Sequence record: PQ850603.1
DNA from: Escherichia phage GertrudWoker_Bas73
Reading direction: 5' to 3' (one strand)
DNA length: 43,856 nucleotides
In this document: in pieces, positions 1,845-38,698 of the stretch
Layout: every line of letters starts with the position of its first letter
Numbering within the stretch: position 1 is the stretch's first letter
Made by a program: the position numbers and the translations under genes
Notes under the pieces: generated by a model
Told to the model about the DNA's origin: nothing
Databases searched by the model: none
What the model saw: only the letters and a program-made list of their open reading frames with translations

Positions 1845-3326
1845 ATGTTAACTATGAACGGTCAGAATCAGGGTGTTAAGACAAAACACCGGGAATGGCT
1901 GCATCACTTCGATAAATGGCAGAAGGTACGCCACGCGCTGGAAGGCGACCTTATTCGCTATCTGCGCAACGTCGGGAAGAACGAACCTGACCCGACCTAC
2001 GCAGCCCAGCGCCAGGAAGAATACGAGAACGGTGCTATCTGTTACAACTTCACTAAACGTACCCTGGCGGGGATGACGGGGTCAGTGATGCGCAAAGACC
2101 CTGAGCAGATTATCCCGCCTGAACTTGAGTACCTGTTGCACAACGCTGACGGTTCGGGTGTAGGGCTGTGGCAGCACGCGCAGGATACGTTAATGGAGAT
2201 TGACTCGATAGGCCGTGGCGGGTTGCTGGTGGACGCCCCGGAAACAGCCGCAGCAACGGCGGCAGAGCAGAACGCGGGATTATTAAACCCGGTAATCGCA
2301 TTCTATACCGCGGAGAACATTATCAACTGGAGACTCACCCGCATCGGTTCAGTGAACCGCGTGACGATGGTTGTATTGCGTGAGGCATGGGAATACTCGG
2401 AACCAGGCGCTGAGTTTGAAACAAAATTCGGCGAGCAATACCGCGTCCTTGACCTGATTGACGGTCGCTACCGCCAGCGCATCTACCGCTTCGATGCCGA
2501 AGGTGGCGCACAGGATGAAGTAATCGAAATCTTCCCGGAACTCGGCGAACAGTTGCGCGGTAAAATCCCGTTCACGTTCATTGGCGCAAGCAACAACGAC
2601 GCCACTATAGACGATGCGCCTTTACTGCCGTTAGCTGAGCTAAATATAGGACACTTCAGAAATTCGGCCGATGTGGAAGAGGCCAGCTTTATAGTAGGTC
2701 AACCGACACTGTTCATTGCCCCCGGCGAGAACATGAGCATGGAGCAGTGGAAAGAAGCCAACCCACACGGCATACGCATGGGGTCGCGTTCAGGCCACAA
2801 CATCGGCTCCGGCGGAAATGCGTTTCTGGTTCAGGCGGCGGAAACTAACCTCGCCAAACAGAATATGCTGGATAAAGAGAATCAGGCCATCCAGATTGGC
2901 GCGCAGCTTATCACCCCGACGCAGCAAATCACCGCGGAATCGGCCCGCCTGCAACGCGGCGCCGACACGTCAGTCATGGCAACAATAGCACGTAATGTAA
3001 GCATGGCGTATACCGATGCGTTGCGCTGGGTTGCGGGTATGCTTGGGCTTAGTGAAGATACTGAGATTGAGTTCAAGCTGAATATGGAATTCTTCCTGCA
3101 ACCTATGACAGCTCAGGACCGCGCTCAGTGGATGGCGGATATTAACGCTGGCCTGCTACCCGCCACCGCTTACTATGCTGCGTTGCGCAAGGCAGGTGTG
3201 ACTGACTGGACAGATGAGGACATTCAGAACGCTATTGAAGACGCACCTCTGCCGTTGGGTTCTGTTGCTCAGGTAGCGGGAGAGATTCCGCAGTCGGCGC
3301 AGCAACAGGACACCACTCAGCAGTAA
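1845..3326 (+). CDS. portal protein
   Basis: 493 aa ORF directly after terminase with RBS-like 'aagaggatt'; size, position and acidic C-terminus typical of portal proteins. Confidence 0.7.
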   Translation: MLTMNGQNQGVKTKHREWLHHFDKWQKVRHALEGDLIRYLRNVGKNEPDPTYAAQRQEEYENGAICYNFTKRTLAGMTGSVMRKDPEQIIPPELEYLLHNADGSGVGLWQHAQDTLMEIDSIGRGGLLVDAPETAAATAAEQNAGLLNPVIAFYTAENIINWRLTRIGSVNRVTMVVLREAWEYSEPGAEFETKFGEQYRVLDLIDGRYRQRIYRFDAEGGAQDEVIEIFPELGEQLRGKIPFTFIGASNNDATIDDAPLLPLAELNIGHFRNSADVEEASFIVGQPTLFIAPGENMSMEQWKEANPHGIRMGSRSGHNIGSGGNAFLVQAAETNLAKQNMLDKENQAIQIGAQLITPTQQITAESARLQRGADTSVMATIARNVSMAYTDALRWVAGMLGLSEDTEIEFKLNMEFFLQPMTAQDRAQWMADINAGLLPATAYYAALRKAGVTDWTDEDIQNAIEDAPLPLGSVAQVAGEIPQSAQQQDTTQQ

Positions 3327-3362: not shown

Positions 3363-4439
3363 ATGCTATTAACTTTAGCGCCACAGGGTTTATCTATGAG
3401 CTTACTTACATCCCTAATCAGCCATCAGATATGGCTGCAACGCACCGCATCCGGTGAGGTGAAAGACCTCACGCCGTTCATTCAGGAGATAAGGGATGAA
3501 ATCAAACGGCAGGTGCTGTTATTCGGTGACGACGGTCGCAGCACTGCGCGACTGAATAAACTGTTACGCGACCTGGAAGAAGCACTAACCGGTATTACGG
3601 GTGACTGGCAAACAAAGCTAACAGACGACCTTAAGGAACTGGCGGCGTACGAGGCTGAGTGGAACGTAAAGACACTGACCGCCAACGTAGACGCGGAATT
3701 TGTTACGCCTACCGCTGAGCAGGTATGGGCCGCTGCCGAGTTTCAACCATTATCATTGAGCGACAAGCCCGTTGATTTCACCAAGCTGATGTCTGGATGG
3801 GGCGAAACGGAAGTAGCACGTCTTGTAACTGGAGTTAAGATGGGCTTTGTGCAAGGCCAGACAACACGGCAGATTGTTAAGAATGTTGTTGGCGCTGGTG
3901 GACTAGCCGACATCTCAGAACGTAACGCGACTACGGTAATCCGCACCGCGCTGTCCCACGTATCCAACGAGGCCCGTAACGAGACGTACCGCCAGAACGA
4001 CGACATCATCGAGAAATATGAGTGGGTGTCAACTTTGGACAGCCGTACCAGCACGATTTGCAGGGCCAGAGACGGAATGACGTGGGAAATCGGTAAAGGT
4101 CCGATGCCGCCAGCCCATCCTAATTGCCGAAGTACCACTGCACCGGTAATCAGTTCAGAGTTCGACTTCCTCGATAAAGGCGCAAAACGGGCGGCTAAGG
4201 GCGCTGACGGCGGCACTCAGGTAAGCGCGGACACAACATATTACGAGTTCCTTAAACAACAACCGGCATGGTTCGTGGATGAAGCACTCGGGCCGACCCG
4301 CGGTAAGATTTTCCGCAACAGCGGTATATCGCCGGAGGAGTTTCGCGTAATATCTGTAGATGGTTTCGGGAATCCGCTTACGCTTAAGCAGATGGCGGAA
4401 CTCGATAAACGTGTTGCTGATTATCTGAAAGGGGATTAA
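3363..4439 (+). CDS. head morphogenesis protein (SPP1 gp7 / Mu F-like minor head protein)
   Basis: 358 aa between portal and capsid genes, as in this family; alternative start ATG at 3396. Confidence 0.55.
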   Translation: MLLTLAPQGLSMSLLTSLISHQIWLQRTASGEVKDLTPFIQEIRDEIKRQVLLFGDDGRSTARLNKLLRDLEEALTGITGDWQTKLTDDLKELAAYEAEWNVKTLTANVDAEFVTPTAEQVWAAAEFQPLSLSDKPVDFTKLMSGWGETEVARLVTGVKMGFVQGQTTRQIVKNVVGAGGLADISERNATTVIRTALSHVSNEARNETYRQNDDIIEKYEWVSTLDSRTSTICRARDGMTWEIGKGPMPPAHPNCRSTTAPVISSEFDFLDKGAKRAAKGADGGTQVSADTTYYEFLKQQPAWFVDEALGPTRGKIFRNSGISPEEFRVISVDGFGNPLTLKQMAELDKRVADYLKGD

Positions 4440-4900
4440 TGATGGGCTTTTTCAAAGTAACTGATGTGCCGTCACGTCGCGTAGTCCAGTACGCTCGGGT
4501 GTCTGGCTCCGGTGAGAACGTAACCTACGTTGAGGATGAAAGTGTACTAGGTACACCTGTAGACGAGATGCCGTACGCAGACAAGACAGGTATCGCACTC
4601 TCTGCCGCTGGTATGCTTTATGAAATTCCGTATCTGGCGGACGCTGGTGACGTGTATTTCTCTGTGCAACCGAAAGACACTGAACTTACAGATGACAGCG
4701 CAACTATCACTGTCGAAGTTAAGGCGGGTAAAGCACCGTATGCCCTGACCTGGTACAAAGACGGTAAGGAAGTGGTAAACGCCCCGGAAGAGGCCTTGTC
4801 TCTGACGGTTAATGCAGTTGGTGAATACTTCGTTAAAGTTACCGATGCCGGTGGCGTAGAGGCCGTCAGTAAAGCGGCGAAGGTCGCTAAACCAGAATGA
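4439..4900 (+). CDS. hypothetical protein with C-terminal Ig-like segment
   Basis: start overlaps upstream stop (ATGATG); C-terminal 'YALTWYKDGKEV...GEYFVKVTD' resembles Ig-like beta-sandwich domains. Confidence 0.4.
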   Translation: MMGFFKVTDVPSRRVVQYARVSGSGENVTYVEDESVLGTPVDEMPYADKTGIALSAAGMLYEIPYLADAGDVYFSVQPKDTELTDDSATITVEVKAGKAPYALTWYKDGKEVVNAPEEALSLTVNAVGEYFVKVTDAGGVEAVSKAAKVAKPE

Positions 4901-4903
4901 TAA

Positions 4904-4930
4904 AAGGCCCCATTAAGGGGCCTTAGTTTT
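4904..4930. terminator. bidirectional hairpin terminator between convergent genes
   Basis: 'aaggcccc attaa ggggcctt' with T-run 'agtttt' downstream and A-run upstream. Confidence 0.6.
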
Positions 4931-5133
4931 CAACGGAATCTTGTGTTTAAATCCTGCTCATGGACAACCCTCAGAACAGTGTCATAATCCCCGTATCTTC
5001 CAGGTTCAAATATATCTAATGCCTTGTAAGCAGACATTGCGTCAAGGAAAACCTGCAGAACCTTTTTAACCCGGCACAAGTCACCGTCGAACTCTTCATC
5101 GAACTCTTGAACTACTTCGCAAATTGCATACAT
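4930..5133 (-). CDS. hypothetical small protein (67 aa)
   Basis: minus-strand ORF with GGAGG RBS (complement of 5140-5144) and its own promoter at 5161-5189. Confidence 0.5.
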   Translation of the reverse strand: MYAICEVVQEFDEEFDGDLCRVKKVLQVFLDAMSAYKALDIFEPGRYGDYDTVLRVVHEQDLNTRFR

Positions 5134-5160
5134 TTTTCACCTCCTGTTTAAGTTAACTGA

Positions 5161-5189
5161 ATAGTACCCTATTATATTGGGGTGTGCAA
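5161..5189 (-). promoter_or_regulatory. sigma70-like promoter TTGCAC-N17-TACTAT with embedded AATAGGGTACTATT palindrome
   Basis: minus strand reads 'TTGCACaccccaatataatagggTACTATtcag' about 25 nt upstream of the 4930..5133 start. Confidence 0.5.
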
Positions 5190-5241
5190 ACTATTTATTT
5201 ACGTATTCCAGTTATTCCACCGAATTGTAAATGTTGGAATA

Positions 5242-5257
5242 AACTATTCGAATAGTT
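5242..5257. repeat. perfect 16-bp palindrome AACTATTCGAATAGTT
   Basis: self-complementary; overlaps the -35 of the promoter at 5256-5284; carries the same CTATTC/GAATAG half-sites as the promoter operators. Confidence 0.6.
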
Positions 5258-5284
5258 GACTTTTCACTGAAAATGTGCTAAGCT
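5256..5284 (+). promoter_or_regulatory. sigma70-like promoter TTGACT-N17-TAAGCT
   Basis: spacing fits consensus; about 225 nt upstream of the Rz start, so it drives a long leader or a short RNA. Confidence 0.35.
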
Positions 5285-5464
5285 CCACCTGAGCTTGTGA
5301 AGTATGAACAAGCGACCGCGGCGCGGGCAGGTAACGGAGCGGGACGTAAGTCCTGAGTGTAGTTACGCTGACGCGTTCGGAAGGGCCATACTCTATTGCT
5401 TGTGTAAAAAGTAACAGGTTTACTTAGATTACGCCGTTTCTATGTTTAAATGATAAGGACTAGC

Positions 5465-5490
5465 GCCCTGCTTTAAGGCAGGGCTTTACT
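5465..5490 (+). terminator. stem-loop / weak terminator in spanin leader
   Basis: 'gccctgc tttaag gcagggc' followed by 'ttt'; located 20 nt upstream of Rz RBS 'gaaagggg'. Confidence 0.35.
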
Positions 5491-5508
5491 TATCGAGAAA
5501 GGGGAAAC

Positions 5509-5895
5509 ATGAATCTTAAAGCAACTGTCGTAGCGGGAGCATGTTTCATCATCCTGGCTTACGCCCACGGCATTTACCAGTATCGCAGCGGCTGGAGCGA
5601 AGGCCGGGCGAATCTCGTTTCGCAGCAACAGCAGAAAGCGCAGGCTGAGTTAGCGAAGAAAACACAACGGCAGCAGCAGGACGAATCGAAGGCAGCCGCC
5701 GCTGACAACGAAGGCAAGACGAAATCAGAGGTGATTACCCGTGAAGTCGTTAAGTACATTAGAACGCCTGGTCGCAGCGTGTGCACTTTTGACCCTGAGC
5801 GCGTGCAGCTCAAGTCCCGCGCCGTCGCAAACGCCAATTCCATCCCCGGATATGACAATGATGCAGCCTCCGTGCAAACTGGCAGCGCCAAGTAG
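5509..5895 (+). CDS. Rz: i-spanin (Rz-like)
   Basis: 128 aa; N-terminal TM helix 'VVAGACFIILAYAHGIY' then Gln/Ala/Lys-rich coiled-coil; contains an embedded out-of-frame lipoprotein ORF. Confidence 0.6.
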   Translation: MNLKATVVAGACFIILAYAHGIYQYRSGWSEGRANLVSQQQQKAQAELAKKTQRQQQDESKAAAADNEGKTKSEVITREVVKYIRTPGRSVCTFDPERVQLKSRAVANANSIPGYDNDAASVQTGSAK

Positions 5896-6004: not shown

Positions 6005-6086
6005 TTGCCTTGTATGTTGGAATAATTTATTCTTGACATGTAAATCCGGGAGGCCCGGATTCCAACGTCCAGGGGACATACTGACT

Positions 6087-7855: not shown

Positions 7856-7884
7856 GAGAGGGACTTCGGTCCCTCTTTTCATTT
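7856..7884 (+). terminator. rho-independent terminator after capsid gene
   Basis: 'agagggac ttcg gtccctct' followed by 'tttcattt'. Confidence 0.6.
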
Positions 7885-8211: not shown

Positions 8212-8562
8212 ATGGTTGATGTAATCAAACGTCGCATTACCGGTGTTTCTGATGATTCTCCTGCCGATGGTCAGGTTGAAATCGATATGGCGAATATCTC
8301 GCCAGCGTCTTTTTCTGCCGCGCTTGCGGCTACCACCGCAGTTACGGTGGGGCAGACTATGGCTCTTACCGTAGTGGTAACTGGCGGTCTGGAGCCGTAT
8401 TCCTACCAGTGGTACAAAGATAACAACGCCATCGACGGAGCCACCGCAGCTACCTATGCGAAGGCGTCCACTACTACCGCAGATTCAGGCACGTATAAAG
8501 TGGTTGTTCACGATGTGTATGGTAATATTATCTCCAGCAGCACCGTAGCAACTGTGTCTTAA
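8212..8562 (+). CDS. Ig-like domain protein (possible capsid decoration / Hoc-like)
   Basis: 'YSYQWYKDNNAIDGATAATYAKASTTTADSGTYKVVVHD' matches Ig-like beta-sandwich pattern. Confidence 0.45.
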   Translation: MVDVIKRRITGVSDDSPADGQVEIDMANISPASFSAALAATTAVTVGQTMALTVVVTGGLEPYSYQWYKDNNAIDGATAATYAKASTTTADSGTYKVVVHDVYGNIISSSTVATVS

Positions 8563-8598
8563 TACAACGGCCCTTCGGGGCCGTAATAAGGAAAGGTC

Positions 8599-8778
8599 AT
8601 GGCAGATAATTACGTAATCCGCGAAAAGTATACCCACGTTGATATCGTTGACGGACAGGTGATGCCTGTTCGCGGTGTGGTAGAAGCGGATGAACTGGTT
8701 GCAACCCAACCAGACAATGAAGAAGCGCACAACAACGGCGGTGGTACTAAGCGTCGTCGCCGTAAGTCAGAGGAATAA
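8599..8778 (+). CDS. hypothetical small protein (59 aa, below ORF-track cutoff)
   Basis: ATG preceded by 'aaggaaaggtc'; ends with basic tail 'GGGTKRRRRKSEE'; fills the gap between flanking genes. Confidence 0.4.
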   Translation: MADNYVIREKYTHVDIVDGQVMPVRGVVEADELVATQPDNEEAHNNGGGTKRRRRKSEE

Positions 8779-12477: not shown

Positions 12478-12482
12478 AACTA

Positions 12483-12506
12483 AGGCCCCGAAAGGGGCCT
12501 TTTTTA
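12483..12506. terminator. bidirectional hairpin terminator
   Basis: 'aggcccc gaaa ggggcct' followed by 'tttttt'; between convergent genes. Confidence 0.65.
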
Positions 12507-12737
12507 TTACTCATCAATGTTACTCCTGTACTCCCGTAACTTTTCCAGACTTTCAATTGCTTCCGCTAAGTCGGTTCCGGTGTCCTTGTGTCCACGTAAA
12601 CCCATGCACAATAGCTTCTTCAATGCGTGCTGTAACGCCGGGTCGCGGATGTCGAAAGCGCGGAGCACATCATAAACGTCTACTGTCATAGTGCTGCCGT
12701 GAGTATTTGTCATTGTGCGGTTGTATTTTGAAGTCAT
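12507..12737 (-). CDS. hypothetical protein coupled to the metallophosphoesterase
   Basis: start overlaps stop of 12734..13864 (ATGA on minus strand); no recognisable motif. Confidence 0.5.
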   Translation of the reverse strand: MTSKYNRTMTNTHGSTMTVDVYDVLRAFDIRDPALQHALKKLLCMGLRGHKDTGTDLAEAIESLEKLREYRSNIDE

Positions 12738-13864
12738 CCCAGCATCTCCGGTGAAATAGTTAAACGTGCGACCTCGCCATATTCGGCGCTATAAGTAATT
12801 ACATTTGCACTGCGGCCTGACATCCACCCGCCGCGGGAGGCATAGGCGTCTTTAGCCGCTAAGGTGCGGTGTTGCTCAACAATCATGTTACGGCTTTCTA
12901 CAATCTTCTGGTGGTGCAGGTGGCCTACGTGGGCGTAGCTATAGACACTCTCACCGAACGCTTTGCGGAATTTGGCAATCATAACCGGTTCGATAGCATC
13001 GAATCGCGCCTTATGCCCGTGGTGAAAGAACAACGTCGTTTTTCCGTGTTGCACCATCTTGTAAACATCCGGCGACGTATCGACAATCACTCGGCTGTCG
13101 TTCGAATATAAAACTGTGAACATTTCAGCCAGCCATACAGAGCCTACAGGGTCATGGTTCCCCTGTACGATAAGCAAGCGAACATTTTTATGTTTAACCA
13201 GTGCCATATCTACAACACGGCGTACCATACGAATCATGTAGCGGACGAGTTTCTGGTAGCGAGTGTCTGCGTCCAACACGTGACGCGACTCAGGTGTAAC
13301 GGCATCCAGACTATCGAAGTGCGCGAAATCACCCAGCAGGTTAATAACTCCTGTTCCTGCATCCGGTGCTTTCTGAAACGCCGCGTCGAACCAACGAGAG
13401 AACAGGTCTTCCGCAATCTTTATATCCCAGTCGTCGCCGCTCTCGTCGGCCCAGGCAAGCATACCGAGATGGAAATCAGATACCGTGTAAAGATTGAGTA
13501 GCTTGTCGTCGCGTTTGGCTCGAGTCGCTTTAGCCGGCGCAACTGGCGTAATCTCTGACTTCATGCCTTCAATCACGGCTTTCATCAACTCGACCTGACG
13601 TTCAGCGTCGGTGTCTGTCTTAACCCATTGCAACTTAGTATTGCCGAACTCGTCTACCAGAGACGACGTCCCTTTAATCTTGTAGCCGTCTGGGACAAGG
13701 TGGCTAACGTCACGCCCGTGGCCTACACCTTTCTTAGCCAGCTTCGCTTTACGGATACGAATAACTCGGTCTGAGATGCCGTATTTACGGGCGATGTCTA
13801 CATTCTTCATCCCGGCGTTCAATTCTTCCTGTAACTGTTCGTCGGTTATTTTCTTCTGGGCCAT
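12734..13864 (-). CDS. HTH-fused calcineurin-like metallophosphoesterase (Mre11/SbcD-like)
   Basis: motifs 'SDFHLG', 'GDFAHFD', 'GNHD', 'HHGH', 'GHLHH' in order; N-terminal ~100 aa HTH-like 'VDIARKYGISDRVIRIRKAKL'. Confidence 0.7.
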   Translation of the reverse strand: MAQKKITDEQLQEELNAGMKNVDIARKYGISDRVIRIRKAKLAKKGVGHGRDVSHLVPDGYKIKGTSSLVDEFGNTKLQWVKTDTDAERQVELMKAVIEGMKSEITPVAPAKATRAKRDDKLLNLYTVSDFHLGMLAWADESGDDWDIKIAEDLFSRWFDAAFQKAPDAGTGVINLLGDFAHFDSLDAVTPESRHVLDADTRYQKLVRYMIRMVRRVVDMALVKHKNVRLLIVQGNHDPVGSVWLAEMFTVLYSNDSRVIVDTSPDVYKMVQHGKTTLFFHHGHKARFDAIEPVMIAKFRKAFGESVYSYAHVGHLHHQKIVESRNMIVEQHRTLAAKDAYASRGGWMSGRSANVITYSAEYGEVARLTISPEMLG

Positions 13865-14837: not shown

Positions 14838-15199
14838 AAGCGCTGTATGAATTTGCGCAATGGTGCTTTGTCGACCGCCACAAACGTAAGCAATTCGACG
14901 ACATCGCGGCGGGCCACCAGGCGGCTTTGATTGCAATGGGCGTGATTAAAGAACCGCAGATGAAAGAAGCGACGGGGCCGGAATGCCCCGTTTCTCTTAT
15001 CGACGTGTTCGAGAAATACCGTGCCATTAAATTCCTACAGCGCGAAACAGATGATACTATCGTTATAATCCCGCGCGATGCGCTCAAATGGCAAGATTTG
15101 GTAGCGTTTCGTGATGTCGCCGGTTACGGCATAAGTTTGTTCGAAGCCGAGGTTATCATGGGCTTAGACGGAATATTTGAGGGCAGAGAAGATGGCTGA
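14828..15199 (+). CDS. putative -1 frameshift extension of tail assembly chaperone (gpGT-like)
   Basis: candidate slippery heptamer 'GGAAAAG' at 14828-14834 just before stop at 14835; -1 frame open from 14822 to 15199. Confidence 0.4.
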   Translation, partial: GKVKALYEFAQWCFVDRHKRKQFDDIAAGHQAALIAMGVIKEPQMKEATGPECPVSLIDVFEKYRAIKFLQRETDDTIVIIPRDALKWQDLVAFRDVAGYGISLFEAEVIMGLDGIFEGREDG

Positions 15200-22355: not shown

Positions 22356-24287
22356 ATGTCAAGCGGATGCGGTGACGTTTTAAGCCTGGCGGATTTACAG
22401 ACCGCCAAGAAGCACCATATTTTTGAAGCCGAGGTTATCACAGGTAAATCCGGCGGAGTATCTACGGGTGCTGATATCGATTACGCGACAAATCAGGTTA
22501 CAGGGCAGACTCAGAAGACGCTCCCGGCCGTGTTGCGTGACGCCGGGTTCAGACCTGCGCCATTCACATTCGAAACAGGTGGGACTTTGGGCGTTAACGA
22601 CGCTGACCTGGCGGTGTTGTGGCCAGGGCCATCAGGCGACGGCAACTATTATGCATGGAAAGGTGCCCTGCCAAAAACCATCCCGGCATCTTCAACCCCG
22701 GCGTCTACGGGCGGAGTAGGCCAGACCGCATGGGTTGCCGTTAGTGAAGCTGCATTGCGCCGTGATTTGGCCCTAAGCACTGGCGCAGGGCTAGTTGGTA
22801 CGTCTTCGGGTCGCACAGTGCAAGGCGAGGTTGACCATTTCAAAATAGGGTATATGACACCCGATGATTTCGGCGCGGTGGGTGATGGTGCCACCGACGA
22901 CACCACGCCTTTGCAACAGGCTATTGACTATTGTTCAAGCAACGGTATCGCGTTAAGAATCCCCGCAAAATCTTATGTTTGGAATGGCGGTATTATAACT
23001 TCACCCATAACAATAATCGGTGACAGACGTCCAGATTACAATTTTAGCTCCAATTCTATGTCTAACGGGTCTGTCATAATTGGCAATTTAAGATTTTCCG
23101 CAAGCCAGGTGATTATTAAGTCACTTGGTGTGCGTAGGCCTACAGGCTCCCCCGGAGATTGTCTGGTGTTATCGACCGATAACTATGCTGGTGGGTCTTG
23201 TATTGTTCAAGATGTAGTTGCCGCGGGCCTTTCCGGTTCGGACACGTACCACAGCGTTCTTGTTGAAGGCTACGATTCCGCGCATGTATCTCAAATAACT
23301 GGCGGTTATAATCTTTTTGGCCTCGCGATTAAGTCAAGAAACGTTGTTGCCAGAGGCGTAATAACCGTAAGCTGTGATACTGGCGTTATCATTAAATCTG
23401 ATAGTGAGTTCAGCACGGCAAAAAATGTGGTGCTGGACGGGCACATTAATGTCGGTAATGGTGTTTCCAGTCAAGGTGTTTGGATTTACAGCACAACCGC
23501 ACAACTTGAGCGTATTACCTGCGCAAACTTACAAAGCATCGATTCCGCTATACATATGCGGATTAAGTCCGAAAACGTAGCTAATGACGTGCTAATTGTT
23601 GGGGCAAATTATTCAGGATCTACTTATGCGGATGTTTTAGTCGAAGGCACTTCGGCGGGCACATTGTACAATGTTAGTTTAGATAGTATAACAGCAGTAG
23701 ATAGCCAGAAATTTATGGCTGCAGGTTTCTGTGAACAACTGATGGTAACAGGATTCTATGGGTCCCTGAAACCTGGCGCTCCCGCCGATACTGCGTTTGA
23801 GGTTAGCGCCGCCGTAGGGCTTTTTAGCGGGTCAAATATCCAACTAGTCCGTCAATACGGCAGTGACCTAATGACAATGAATCTCGGTAACAGTTATCTT
23901 AATAATAGATTATCATCTGTTAAGGCGAAAGTAATAGGAGACGGCAAACCTAGACCGGGGTATAAAGAACAGAATCTTAGCGGCGCTGCGGCTTCAATGA
24001 TTGTCGGCGACAGTTTGGGTCCCTCTGGGGTTGTGTCTGTCACCGCGTTATCCACCGGCAGTTCATTCAGCAGTATTTCTATTAATGACGACTATGGTCA
24101 GCCGGTTAAGCCAGGTTTTCTTCTAATAATCCGAAACGCATCCACTATCCCGTTCGTTATGAACCATAATCCAGGGTCTGGTGGAATCGCAAATAACGGG
24201 GCGGTGGGTAAGACCATTGCGGGCGGAGACACTATAATGTACGTTTTTGACGGGACTAACTGGCGTCAGACTCCATCAATAACATAA
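22356..24287 (+). CDS. tailspike / receptor-binding protein
   Basis: 643 aa; N-terminal ~120 aa particle-binding-like region then Gly/Ser/Asn/Val-rich repetitive segment suggesting beta-helix; last structural gene. Confidence 0.6.
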   Translation: MSSGCGDVLSLADLQTAKKHHIFEAEVITGKSGGVSTGADIDYATNQVTGQTQKTLPAVLRDAGFRPAPFTFETGGTLGVNDADLAVLWPGPSGDGNYYAWKGALPKTIPASSTPASTGGVGQTAWVAVSEAALRRDLALSTGAGLVGTSSGRTVQGEVDHFKIGYMTPDDFGAVGDGATDDTTPLQQAIDYCSSNGIALRIPAKSYVWNGGIITSPITIIGDRRPDYNFSSNSMSNGSVIIGNLRFSASQVIIKSLGVRRPTGSPGDCLVLSTDNYAGGSCIVQDVVAAGLSGSDTYHSVLVEGYDSAHVSQITGGYNLFGLAIKSRNVVARGVITVSCDTGVIIKSDSEFSTAKNVVLDGHINVGNGVSSQGVWIYSTTAQLERITCANLQSIDSAIHMRIKSENVANDVLIVGANYSGSTYADVLVEGTSAGTLYNVSLDSITAVDSQKFMAAGFCEQLMVTGFYGSLKPGAPADTAFEVSAAVGLFSGSNIQLVRQYGSDLMTMNLGNSYLNNRLSSVKAKVIGDGKPRPGYKEQNLSGAAASMIVGDSLGPSGVVSVTALSTGSSFSSISINDDYGQPVKPGFLLIIRNASTIPFVMNHNPGSGGIANNGAVGKTIAGGDTIMYVFDGTNWRQTPSIT

Positions 24288-36792: not shown

Positions 36793-37019
36793 TTCACGTT
36801 CTCCTTAATCCACGCTTCCACTTTCTCCGGGTCAAACGTACCTGGCTGACGGCGGCCCATAATGCGAATACAACAATCCGGGAACTTCCCACTCTTTAAC
36901 CAGTTATTCAGCGTTCGACGAGTAACCCCGATACGCTCAGCTACCTCATTCTGCGTCATTCTCAAACCCTCATTATCAGTTAACGAAACAAGTATACATT
37001 GCGAATAATGGGAAATCAA
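36789..37019 (-). CDS. small HTH DNA-binding protein (AlpA/excisionase-like)
   Basis: 'MTQNEVAERIGVTRRTLNNWLKSGKFP' HTH; likely start at internal ATG (36959) with RBS 'gaggg'. Confidence 0.5.
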   Translation of the reverse strand: MISHYSQCILVSLTDNEGLRMTQNEVAERIGVTRRTLNNWLKSGKFPDCCIRIMGRRQPGTFDPEKVEAWIKENVK

Positions 37020-37306
37020 ACATAATCACACCTATTGACATTATGAAAATCTTCGTTTAAGGTGCTTCTATATCTTAGTTACTTTGATTCTTGTTCACCT
37101 TGTAAAACCGCTTAAAACGCAGCTGCGCGCAGCGCAAGCAAAGTGTTAAGCGCAAGTTTACTGAACACGAGAATTAGCGTAACTTTCCTTCCTAAGTATC
37201 TTCGGTTGCCCTGGGCAAGCTCTATTCTCATCGGCAGCATATCTCTTAAGTATCTGATTTTCTTAATGTGCCGCAGATTCGCAACCGTAAAAATGTAACG
37301 ATTATT

Positions 37307-37332
37307 GGGCAGGCTTAAGGCCTGCCCTTTAG
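37307..37332 (+). terminator. GC-rich hairpin, possible weak terminator in control region
   Basis: 'gggcaggc ttaag gcctgccc' followed by 'tttagtt'. Confidence 0.35.
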
Positions 37333-37399
37333 TTACCAAGTAATAAGAATAATGGCACAACCATACCTGAAGAATCACAACGGCAACGTAACTATTCTC

Positions 37400-38527: not shown

Positions 38528-38698
38528 ATGAAACTGAATGACATCGTGACCTGGACTGGTAGAAACGGAGAAAAACGATTCGGGCTTATTGTTGCGTCAA
38601 ACGGCAACAAGTACCGTGTTATGCGATGGCGTCAGTGGGCACGCTGCCCGAGGTACTACTGGATTCGCAGTGAACGATTATCTTTAAAACGCCAATAA
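38528..38698 (+). CDS. hypothetical small protein (56 aa)
   Basis: RBS 'gcaggaga'; below track cutoff. Confidence 0.35.
   Translation: MKLNDIVTWTGRNGEKRFGLIVASNGNKYRVMRWRQWARCPRYYWIRSERLSLKRQ

Follow-up and report, generated by a model that had tools for sequence, protein, structure and literature searches.

A structured leader RNA between a predicted promoter and the Rz spanin gene in Kagunavirus-like phages, with relatives in other Guernseyvirinae

In Escherichia phage GertrudWoker_Bas73 (sequence record PQ850603.1), a gap of 375 nt separates a small open reading frame (ORF) on the minus strand from the spanin gene Rz. We analysed a stretch of 43,856 nt from this phage, hereafter called the window; it represents all or nearly all of the genome of a Kagunavirus-like phage (subfamily Guernseyvirinae). 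The gap contains a predicted promoter and, directly downstream of it, what is by its sequence a new family of structured phage leader RNAs that matches no catalogued family, occurs in hundreds of related phages of E. coli and Salmonella, and probably controls transcription of the late structural operon. The features of the gap are listed here in window coordinates.

5134-5508: gap of 375 nt between the minus-strand ORF and Rz
5212-5242, no strand assigned: inverted repeat TTATTCCA-N15-TGGAATAA with perfect 8-nt arms, just 5′ of the −35 element; candidate operator or activator site
5256-5284, plus strand: sigma-70 promoter with an extended −10 element, predicted from the sequence (TTGACT 5256-5261, 17-nt spacer, TAAGCT 5279-5284)
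5291-5399, plus strand: conserved structured core of the leader RNA, about 109 nt, a full match to covariance model R1
5293-5313, plus strand: P1, hairpin at the 5′ end (GCUUGU 5293-5298 with ACAAGC 5308-5313, 9-nt loop)
5304-5414, plus strand: 36-codon ORF, the sole plus-strand ORF of the gap, judged not to be a gene
5316-5380, plus strand: P2, long irregular hairpin in three parts, 23 pairs
5316-5318/5378-5380, 5320-5325/5372-5377 and 5328-5335/5362-5370, plus strand: helices of P2
5336-5339 (GGAG) opposite 5356-5361 (AGUGUA), plus strand: conserved internal loop of P2
5340-5345/5350-5355, plus strand: apical hairpin of P2 with a GUAA loop
5376-5398, plus strand: conserved tail UUCGGAAGGGCC-N6-UAUUG (GGAAGGGCC...CUAUUG), predicted to be single-stranded from 5381
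5409-5505, plus strand: 3′ module of the leader (P3, AU-rich linker, GC hairpin and CUUUACUUA tail), homologous to the 3′ part of the early-operon leader
5409-5425, plus strand: P3, small hairpin AAGUAA-CAGGU-UUACUU, first element of the shared 3′ module, which aligns to the early-leader profile
5465-5484, plus strand: GC hairpin GCCCTGCT-TTAA-GGCAGGGC, then TTTACTTATC, found by a terminator scan; its tail UUUACUUA is at 5485-5492
5498-5504 and 5509-5511, plus strand: ribosome-binding site AAAGGGG and start codon ATG of Rz
5509-5895, plus strand: Rz, with Rz1 embedded; its annotation is Rz-like spanin

Related leaders were assigned to types. Type A comprises the Rz leaders of Kagunavirus and many Jerseyvirus, type B those of fmb-p1-like Jerseyvirus, type C those of pink, GRNsp27 and Hafnia TS33, and type D those of SE1, Shemara and Pantoea AH01. 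Second copies in the same genome are called A2. The preliminary description of the interval, which was made from its sequence, drew attention to the GC hairpin. On the sequence comparisons below, the conserved structured part is the 5′ half at 5291-5399, not the hairpin.

The model R1 was built from 12 type A variants with a structure drawn by hand. It matches the core of the window with 131.8 bits (E about 1e-30), the A2 copies with 76-121 bits, type B with E about 1e-7 and type C at no better than E 0.2-0.4. Covariation was evaluated in 35 distinct A, A2 and B sequences, which were fitted to the model, a procedure that favours the structure. In this alignment, 95.9% of cells are in standard pairs and both sides have changed at 17 of the 29 pairs, values that none of 500 shuffles attains. 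When the 3′ partners are slid by 1-3 columns, pairing is only 30-38% and the pairs changed on both sides number 0-4; the contrast with these controls is large despite the model-fitted alignment. P1 is 98.5% paired; of its six pairs, four differ on both sides when types A and B are compared. P2 is 90-97% paired, with compensatory changes at 13 of its 23 pairs; for example, alignment pair 38/125 is seen as C-G, U-A and A-U. Among divergent relatives, compensatory changes are visible at first comparison. The sequence CGGAAGG of the tail does not vary across types A, A2, B and C. Several core pairs are mostly G-U, and since these would become A-C mismatches on the opposite strand, the folded molecule is the plus-strand transcript. 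The fold of the single sequence is mildly better than that of shuffles (z −2.0), so the case for structure rests on covariation and not on energy.

Conservation of the core exceeds that of its surroundings. The block 5204-5508 is 94-98% identical in about 180 phages of E. coli and Salmonella, and the genes to its left differ from phage to phage: small hypothetical proteins, a methyltransferase or a beta subunit of DNA polymerase III are encoded there. Averaged over 36 type A loci, identity to the window is 98.3% for the core, 94.7% for the promoter/operator part and 94.7% for 5400-5508; in the same loci it is 91.6% for Rz and 85.9% for third codon positions of Rz. Even in four loci whose Rz is 75-82% identical (63-71% at third codon positions), the core is still 97-99% identical. 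Over 4900-5520, where 183 phage records were matched, the window is 98.9% identical to Escherichia phage Bas72, and the BASEL phages Bas70-76 are 98-99% identical to it in the leader region. A replication origin or other DNA-level element at the leader was considered and rejected: the GC-skew minimum lies near 37 kb, not 5.3 kb, and the G-U pairs indicate RNA.

Some short repeats occur in the leader. GCTTGTG is found at 5293-5299 and 5398-5404, and TTTACTTA at 5419-5426 and 5485-5492. Type B has its own repeated octamer, GCTTTCAG, at positions matching the first of these repeat pairs. The repeats suggest competing pairings or a repeated binding site.

The sigma-70-like promoter that the preliminary description placed at 5256-5284 is present there. 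A TG at 5276-5277 precedes the −10 element (TGcTAAGCT), so we class the promoter as extended −10. The −35 element, the spacer, the TGn and positions T1, A2 and T6 of the −10 element all agree with what is expected of sigma-70 promoters of this class. A strict consensus scan omitted the site because its −10 element fits at 3 of 6 positions. Allowing up to two mismatches, the full pattern occurs once in the window, with 0.24 occurrences expected. The −35 element, the spacing, the TG and −10 positions T1, A2 and T6 are kept in 40 distinct leaders, including all variants of types A, B and C, and the middle positions of the −10 element vary (TAAGCT, TACGCT, TAACCT). This is the pattern that a working sigma-70 promoter would be expected to leave. 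A predicted host promoter is annotated at the equivalent site in the record of phage fBC-Eco01. Taken singly, the promoter and the GC hairpin are each at chance level; it is the comparison with relatives that makes these two predicted elements real. Judging from the position of the −10 element, we infer that transcription starts at about 5291.

The inverted repeat just upstream of the promoter is kept in leader types A, B and C. Its left arm, TTATTCCA, occurs five times in the window (1.2 expected). Its right arm, TGGAATAA, is found again at 6018-6025, ahead of the next promoter-like site. There it sits 7 nt 5′ of a TTGACA at 6033-6038, in the interval from Rz1 to the scaffold gene, and this TTGACA is followed by a hairpin ATCCGGG-AGG-CCCGGAT at 6044-6060. 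The sites at 5212-5242 and 6018-6038 are candidates for a shared operator, and the site at 6033 is a possible second late promoter.

Two further statements of the preliminary description, that the interval has no ORF of at least 60 aa and that its 36-codon frame is weak and lacks a clear ribosome-binding site, are borne out. There is no such ORF on the plus strand in 5134-5508, and the short frame is the ORF at 5304-5414, which is not conserved in relatives. This ORF is annotated as a hypothetical protein in the records of Bas72 and fBC-Eco01, which would favour a gene for a 36-aa protein as the conserved element. We give this explanation almost no credence. The ribosome-binding site is unconvincing, and in many otherwise well-kept variants the start codon is gone or the frame is shifted or stopped (shifts or stops are seen in L002, L006, L021, L030, L071 and L098). 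The ORF is absent from types B and C and from most A2 copies, and substitutions follow compensatory base-pairing rather than codons. The 36-38-aa "hypothetical protein" of several records is very probably not a gene, which amends the genome annotation. Because covariation is strong and the 36-codon ORF is unconserved, the region encodes a functional non-coding RNA.

The GC hairpin followed by TTT is also as first described, comprising 5465-5484 and TTTAC. Its stem has 8 bp, six of them G-C, and its loop 4 nt. The terminator scan found 3 such sites in 2 kb, with 1.5 expected. The stem covaries: its pairing survives as GCCCUGC/GCAGGGC, GCCCCGC/GCGGGGC and GCCCGGC/GCCGGGC, and alignment pair 214/225 occurs as C-G, G-C and U-A. 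The sequence after the stem is UUUAC (UUUACUUAUC) in type A and UUAGC (UUAGCGUAU, UUAGCGUA) in type B, and it has no U-tract in A2 (ACUGCGUU) or in types C and D (UACUGUUAC). The three U of the window fall short of the U-run of an intrinsic terminator, and the looser rule of the scan (5 T in 8 bases) holds for type A only. In fBC-Eco01, ARNold calls a terminator at the equivalent hairpin. By its sequence, the hairpin at 5465-5484 would be at best a leaky or weak terminator in type A and a non-terminator in the other types. Because the U-tract is weak or absent, an efficient terminator is excluded and no discrete end of a small RNA (sRNA) is expected at the hairpin; because the hairpin is leaky or non-terminating, transcripts must continue into the downstream genes. 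Pairing of AGGGC in the tail with GCCCU in the 5′ arm of the hairpin was considered as an antiterminator and rejected, as only 4-5 bp are possible and these do not covary.

The preliminary description had offered two explanations: either the hairpin marks the end of a short non-coding RNA, or the interval is an attenuator-like leader. Of the former, the non-coding RNA stands, on the strength of the covariation and the unconserved ORF, and the end at the hairpin does not, given a U-tract that is UUUAC or absent. Of the latter, the leader stands: the roughly 250 instances that we collected are all directly upstream of an operon and on the same strand. The loss of the U-tract in sister variants speaks against attenuation. 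The leader is the better reading of the two.

We searched for other occurrences. With Rfam 15, the whole window gave no match at gathering thresholds, and a search for tRNA and tmRNA also found nothing; the Rfam scan that had been proposed for the interval therefore matched no family. At E values up to 10, the region 5100-5560 gave only five matches, which at 12-17 bits are at chance level, the cut-offs being 35-75 bits. The exact tail pattern retrieved 50 phage stretches with zero false positives. The scans for distribution were seeded with type A and B sequence patterns and may miss distant relatives elsewhere. A pattern scan of 5,426 complete E. coli genomes found no copy, and the only match among plasmids, CP088689.1 (44,086 bp), is a misfiled Kagunavirus genome, entered as an E. 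coli plasmid, that has the RNA twice; an origin from the host, or copies in prophages, were rejected on these results. In the genome collection, the one confirmed copy (type B, 36.4 bits) is on a 738-bp contig of a Taishania pollutisoli assembly (NZ_JACVEL010000048.1), and is probably phage contamination in this Bacteroidota assembly. Metagenomes yielded 17 confirmed copies, most on Kagunavirus-like contigs of about 44 kb. No free-standing copy was found in these scans, and beyond the Guernseyvirinae-like contigs of about 44 kb there is only the copy on the 738-bp contig. Within the window, a match to our models R1 and R2 at 22843-22976 (E 0.1-0.25) lies inside a tail-fibre ORF and was taken as chance. 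Our literature search found no RNA element or transcription map for these phages.

The leaders appear to be mosaics of modules. P3 is not universal, since it is missing from type B and from L031. In type C, an equivalent of P2 can form, as judged by eye only. The type D leaders (L106-L108, i.e. SE1, Shemara and Pantoea AH01) lie about 290 nt 5′ of spanin genes and have another promoter (TATAAT) and another 5′ half; a GGCC-GUAA-GGCC apex and AUAGUCUAUU are kept, by eye, and the 3′ half is that of type C.

Several phage contigs of about 44 kb contain the exact tail pattern twice. The additional (A2) copies have a near-identical promoter and the same core of P1, P2 and tail, and the 12 second copies are all 5′ of the first gene of an operon, on the same strand. 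This operon is the early rightward one, and the second copies are located in its leader, beside a divergent gene for an AlpA-like helix-turn-helix protein (equivalent to 36950-37370 in the window). The relatives with second copies are L055, L069, L071, L073, L094, L098, L099, L103 and L003, which are Kagunaviruses from IMG/VR and GenBank. In them, the second copies replace the 5′ part of the early leader and form two sub-variants, distinguished by the P2 apex and the 3′ hairpin. In the window, the core RNA occurs only once, ahead of Rz. The early leader of the window is instead a different non-coding sequence of about 290 nt, with these features.

37036-37345: leader of the early rightward operon, with a TTGACA-17-TAAGGT promoter at 37036-37064
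37307-37327: GC hairpin GGGCAGGC-TTAA-GCCTGCCC, then TTTAGTTA

This early leader is kept at 70-96% identity in about 396 Guernseyvirinae records, and a consensus fold of six sequences has compensatory changes at 11 of 62 pairs. The early-leader profile matches the Rz leader at 5409-5505 with an E value of 7.7e-5, and other type A Rz leaders with E values of 1e-4 to 8e-4. In addition, the early-leader sequence TTCGG...GGGCAAGCTCTATTC at 37201-37227 (GGGCAAGCTCTATTC at 37213-37227) resembles the tail of the Rz leader. These are the only two places in the window with a match to a loose composite tail pattern, though about one extra chance match is expected. In Salmonella phage fmb-p1 (L238), the 3′ module of the early leader occurs twice in tandem on the minus strand at 8230-8672 (E 3.9e-105 and 1.7e-14). 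Because they share copies of the core, the 3′ module and a tail-like motif, the leaders of the two long rightward operons are related and built of exchangeable modules.

To the left of the Rz leader, the window has these features.

1845-3326: portal protein
3363-4439: head morphogenesis protein
4439-4900: Hoc-like protein
4904-4924: GC hairpin, terminator-like on both strands, which ends the upstream head-gene unit
4930-5133, minus strand: small ORF

The non-coding stretch from the promoter to the ATG of Rz at 5509 is about 218 nt, and the genes for the scaffold and then the major capsid protein are located 3′ of Rz/Rz1. From ORF orientation and GC skew, a rightward gene array spans from about 37 kb across the end of the window to about 24 kb, so the gap lies within a very long rightward array, just past a terminator. 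Strong GC hairpins with T runs were seen at 4904-4924, 7856-7877, 12482-12501 and 14971-14992. The hairpin at 7856-7877 is a strong terminator-like structure 3′ of the major capsid gene, within the late unit. Those at 12482-12501 and 14971-14992 bracket a minus-strand insert that includes a gene for an exonuclease-like protein (12734-13864).

Our preferred reading, to which we assign a probability of about 0.42, is that the interval consists of the promoter and 5′ leader of the unit comprising Rz/Rz1, scaffold and capsid genes, and that the core and tail act in cis on RNA polymerase. Host sigma-70 RNA polymerase would start at about 5291 from the extended −10 promoter, which lies just 3′ of the operator and of the terminator of the head-gene unit. 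The first ~109 nt would fold during transcription into P1 and P2, followed by the single-stranded tail. The AU-rich stretch and the GC hairpin with its poor U-tract would come next, and transcription would proceed into Rz. The core and tail might act on the transcribing polymerase alone or together with a phage or host protein, and the polymerase would thereby pass the hairpin of the leader and terminator-like hairpins further along the late operon. We favour a role in elongation or termination because the element accompanies a sigma-70 promoter at the start of very long units, because paralogous copies or modules are found in both rightward leaders, as with putL/putR and nutL/nutR, and because terminator-like hairpins occur both in the leader and in the late unit (e.g., at 7856-7877). 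This role is further favoured because no protein resembling N or Q was recognised among ten proteins of the window that were compared with PHROGs; eight of these ten are from the early control region or the rightward early operon, and most matched families without a known function. A 56-aa ORF of the early operon (38528-38698) has an Arg/Trp-rich C-terminus, RVMRWRQWARCPRYYWIRSERLSLKRQ, and its only match is a PHROG of unknown function; as a speculation, its product is a candidate RNA-binding peptide.

The put RNAs of phage HK022 are cis-acting, RNA-only processive antiterminators that bind the zinc-binding domain of the polymerase beta-prime subunit and suppress pausing and termination. They are encoded at putL and putR, paralogous sites giving stem-loop RNAs in the leaders of two phage operons (PMC9378689). 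Like put, the RNA described here would be made by host sigma-70 polymerase and has a folded stem-loop domain at or near the start of the transcript, with P1 2-3 nt past the predicted start. Paralogous copies occur in the leaders of two long operons (here in some Kagunaviruses), and no dedicated antiterminator protein was recognised among the ten that were scanned. Unlike put, which has about 72 nt, two stems and a triplex, the core here has about 109 nt and consists of a short hairpin, a very long one and a single-stranded tail. Also, put is found in lambdoid phages, but this family is in virulent Guernseyvirinae, and its action on polymerase is proposed by analogy.

Other known systems show partial similarities. 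As with the lambda PR′ promoter, 6S RNA and tR′, a promoter precedes lysis and structural genes, the leader is untranslated, a hairpin occurs about 194 nt from the predicted start (5291-5484) and transcription must go on into a very long late operon. However, no conserved folded domain is known for the lambda leader, none of the ten proteins scanned was recognised as Q-like, and the hairpin here would be a much weaker terminator than tR′. Moreover, a −10-like pause element is not conserved: AAGTAT at +10 to +15 is present in type A only, and L031, A2 variants and types B and C have lost it. The nut sites of lambda and P22 resemble our case in that an RNA motif is common to two operon leaders of one genome, and the apical hairpin of P2 has a GNRA-type loop like boxB. 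Unlike boxB, this loop varies (GUAA, GUUAA, GUCA, UUUA, CACA). The boxA-like sequence CGCUUUAAGG is one consensus residue short and lies inside a hairpin, and no N-like protein was identified in the proteins scanned. With intrinsic terminators and attenuators, the hairpin at 5465-5484 shares an 8-bp GC-rich stem, a 4-nt loop and subsequent U's, but its U-tract is UUUACUUA here and is missing in sister variants.

Several points weigh against a cis-acting role on polymerase. The terminator of the leader is poor, so antitermination there may be needless. The analogy to put rests on layout, given that neither sequences nor models show similarity: R2, run with filters off, has no match in the HK022 immunity region (in which putL was located using residues given in PMC9378689), and its sole match in HK022 is elsewhere and at chance level (16 bits, E 0.1). 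The tail variants CTCTATT and CTATATT show no co-variation when the two leaders of a genome are compared, and hence lend no support to a specific partner shared by both. Types C (borderline, E 0.1-0.4) and D (not found) have no significant match to R1 or R2, and because these leaders are unmatched, the core is not universal across the subfamily in recognisable form. Finally, the identity of the core across genera could partly stem from recent recombination of cassettes and not from selection alone. A stricter form of the proposal is that a put-like strategy arose independently, in which a self-sufficient leader RNA makes host polymerase resistant to termination and swappable promoter-RNA cassettes, carrying either the P1-P2 core or the 5′ domain of the early leader, are joined to a common 3′ module. 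By analogy to put such an arrangement is conceivable, and we regard it as improbable.

The main rival to a role in elongation or termination is a post-transcriptional one, which we consider somewhat unlikely. The leader would stabilise the late mRNA against RNase E or RppH, or would contain the site of a translational regulator that sets the output of Rz/Rz1 and downstream genes. P1 is at the predicted 5′ end, the classic position for an mRNA stabiliser, of which the 5′ stem-loop of ompA is an example, and the leader ends 24 nt ahead of the Rz start. RNAalifold also proposed that the 5′ end pairs with the segment preceding the ribosome-binding site in a closing helix, which is 95% paired in types A and B. 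We rejected this helix, since in nine of nine leaders its duplex energy is no stronger than that of shuffles (p 0.18-0.86). Furthermore, a stabiliser needs neither a 65-nt covarying P2 nor an invariant single-stranded tail, and control specific to translation of Rz is argued against because the same core precedes another operon with another first gene.

A stand-alone sRNA of about 195 nt (5291 to about 5487), acting in trans on host or phage targets or as a decoy against a host defence, would explain why promoter, RNA and hairpin together resemble a cassette with a second locus in some relatives, why the hairpin stem covaries, why the core is conserved far above its neighbours and why the presence of the second copy varies as that of an accessory gene does. 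We nevertheless judge it decidedly unlikely. Terminators of Hfq-dependent sRNAs need a long U-run, but the hairpin is followed by three U here, by UUAG in type B and by no U-tract in types C, D and A2, with no other obvious means of making a defined 3′ end. Every copy found lies directly 5′ of an operon and on its strand; an Hfq-type sRNA would be a discrete gene that ends in a long U tail and that can lie apart from its targets. It is this missing U-tract, together with the fixed position, that makes an sRNA less likely. The order of promoter, structured domain, hairpin with U's and gene is also the usual layout of a riboswitch-like or protein-dependent attenuator, in which a ligand or protein on the internal loop of P2 and the tail would decide termination at 5465-5484, and the nucleotides of the internal loop and tail are indeed conserved. 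Against this, no Rfam family was matched when E values up to 10 were allowed, the core and the hairpin are about 65 nt apart, with poorly conserved AU-rich sequence between them, and sister variants have lost the U-tract. A conserved alternative pairing with the hairpin arms was not seen, and because no such pairing connects core and hairpin, a riboswitch is less likely; overall, we hold attenuation to be very improbable.

The Guernseyvirinae (Kagunavirus, Jerseyvirus and Cornellvirus) are among the most often isolated phages of E. coli and Salmonella for therapy and biocontrol. To our knowledge, they have no RNA polymerase of their own, and the regulation of their transcription is essentially unstudied. 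For these phages, our analysis provides a new family of structured RNAs that is well supported and that comes with defined helices and a covariance model. It also identifies a promoter and an operator that are likely to be the main ones of the late structural operon, and gives evidence that the two long rightward operons have leaders made of shared, exchangeable RNA modules. Should the RNA indeed act on polymerase, antitermination by RNA would have a second, independent example, and if the RNA is self-sufficient, it would represent only the second known class of RNA-only processive antiterminators.

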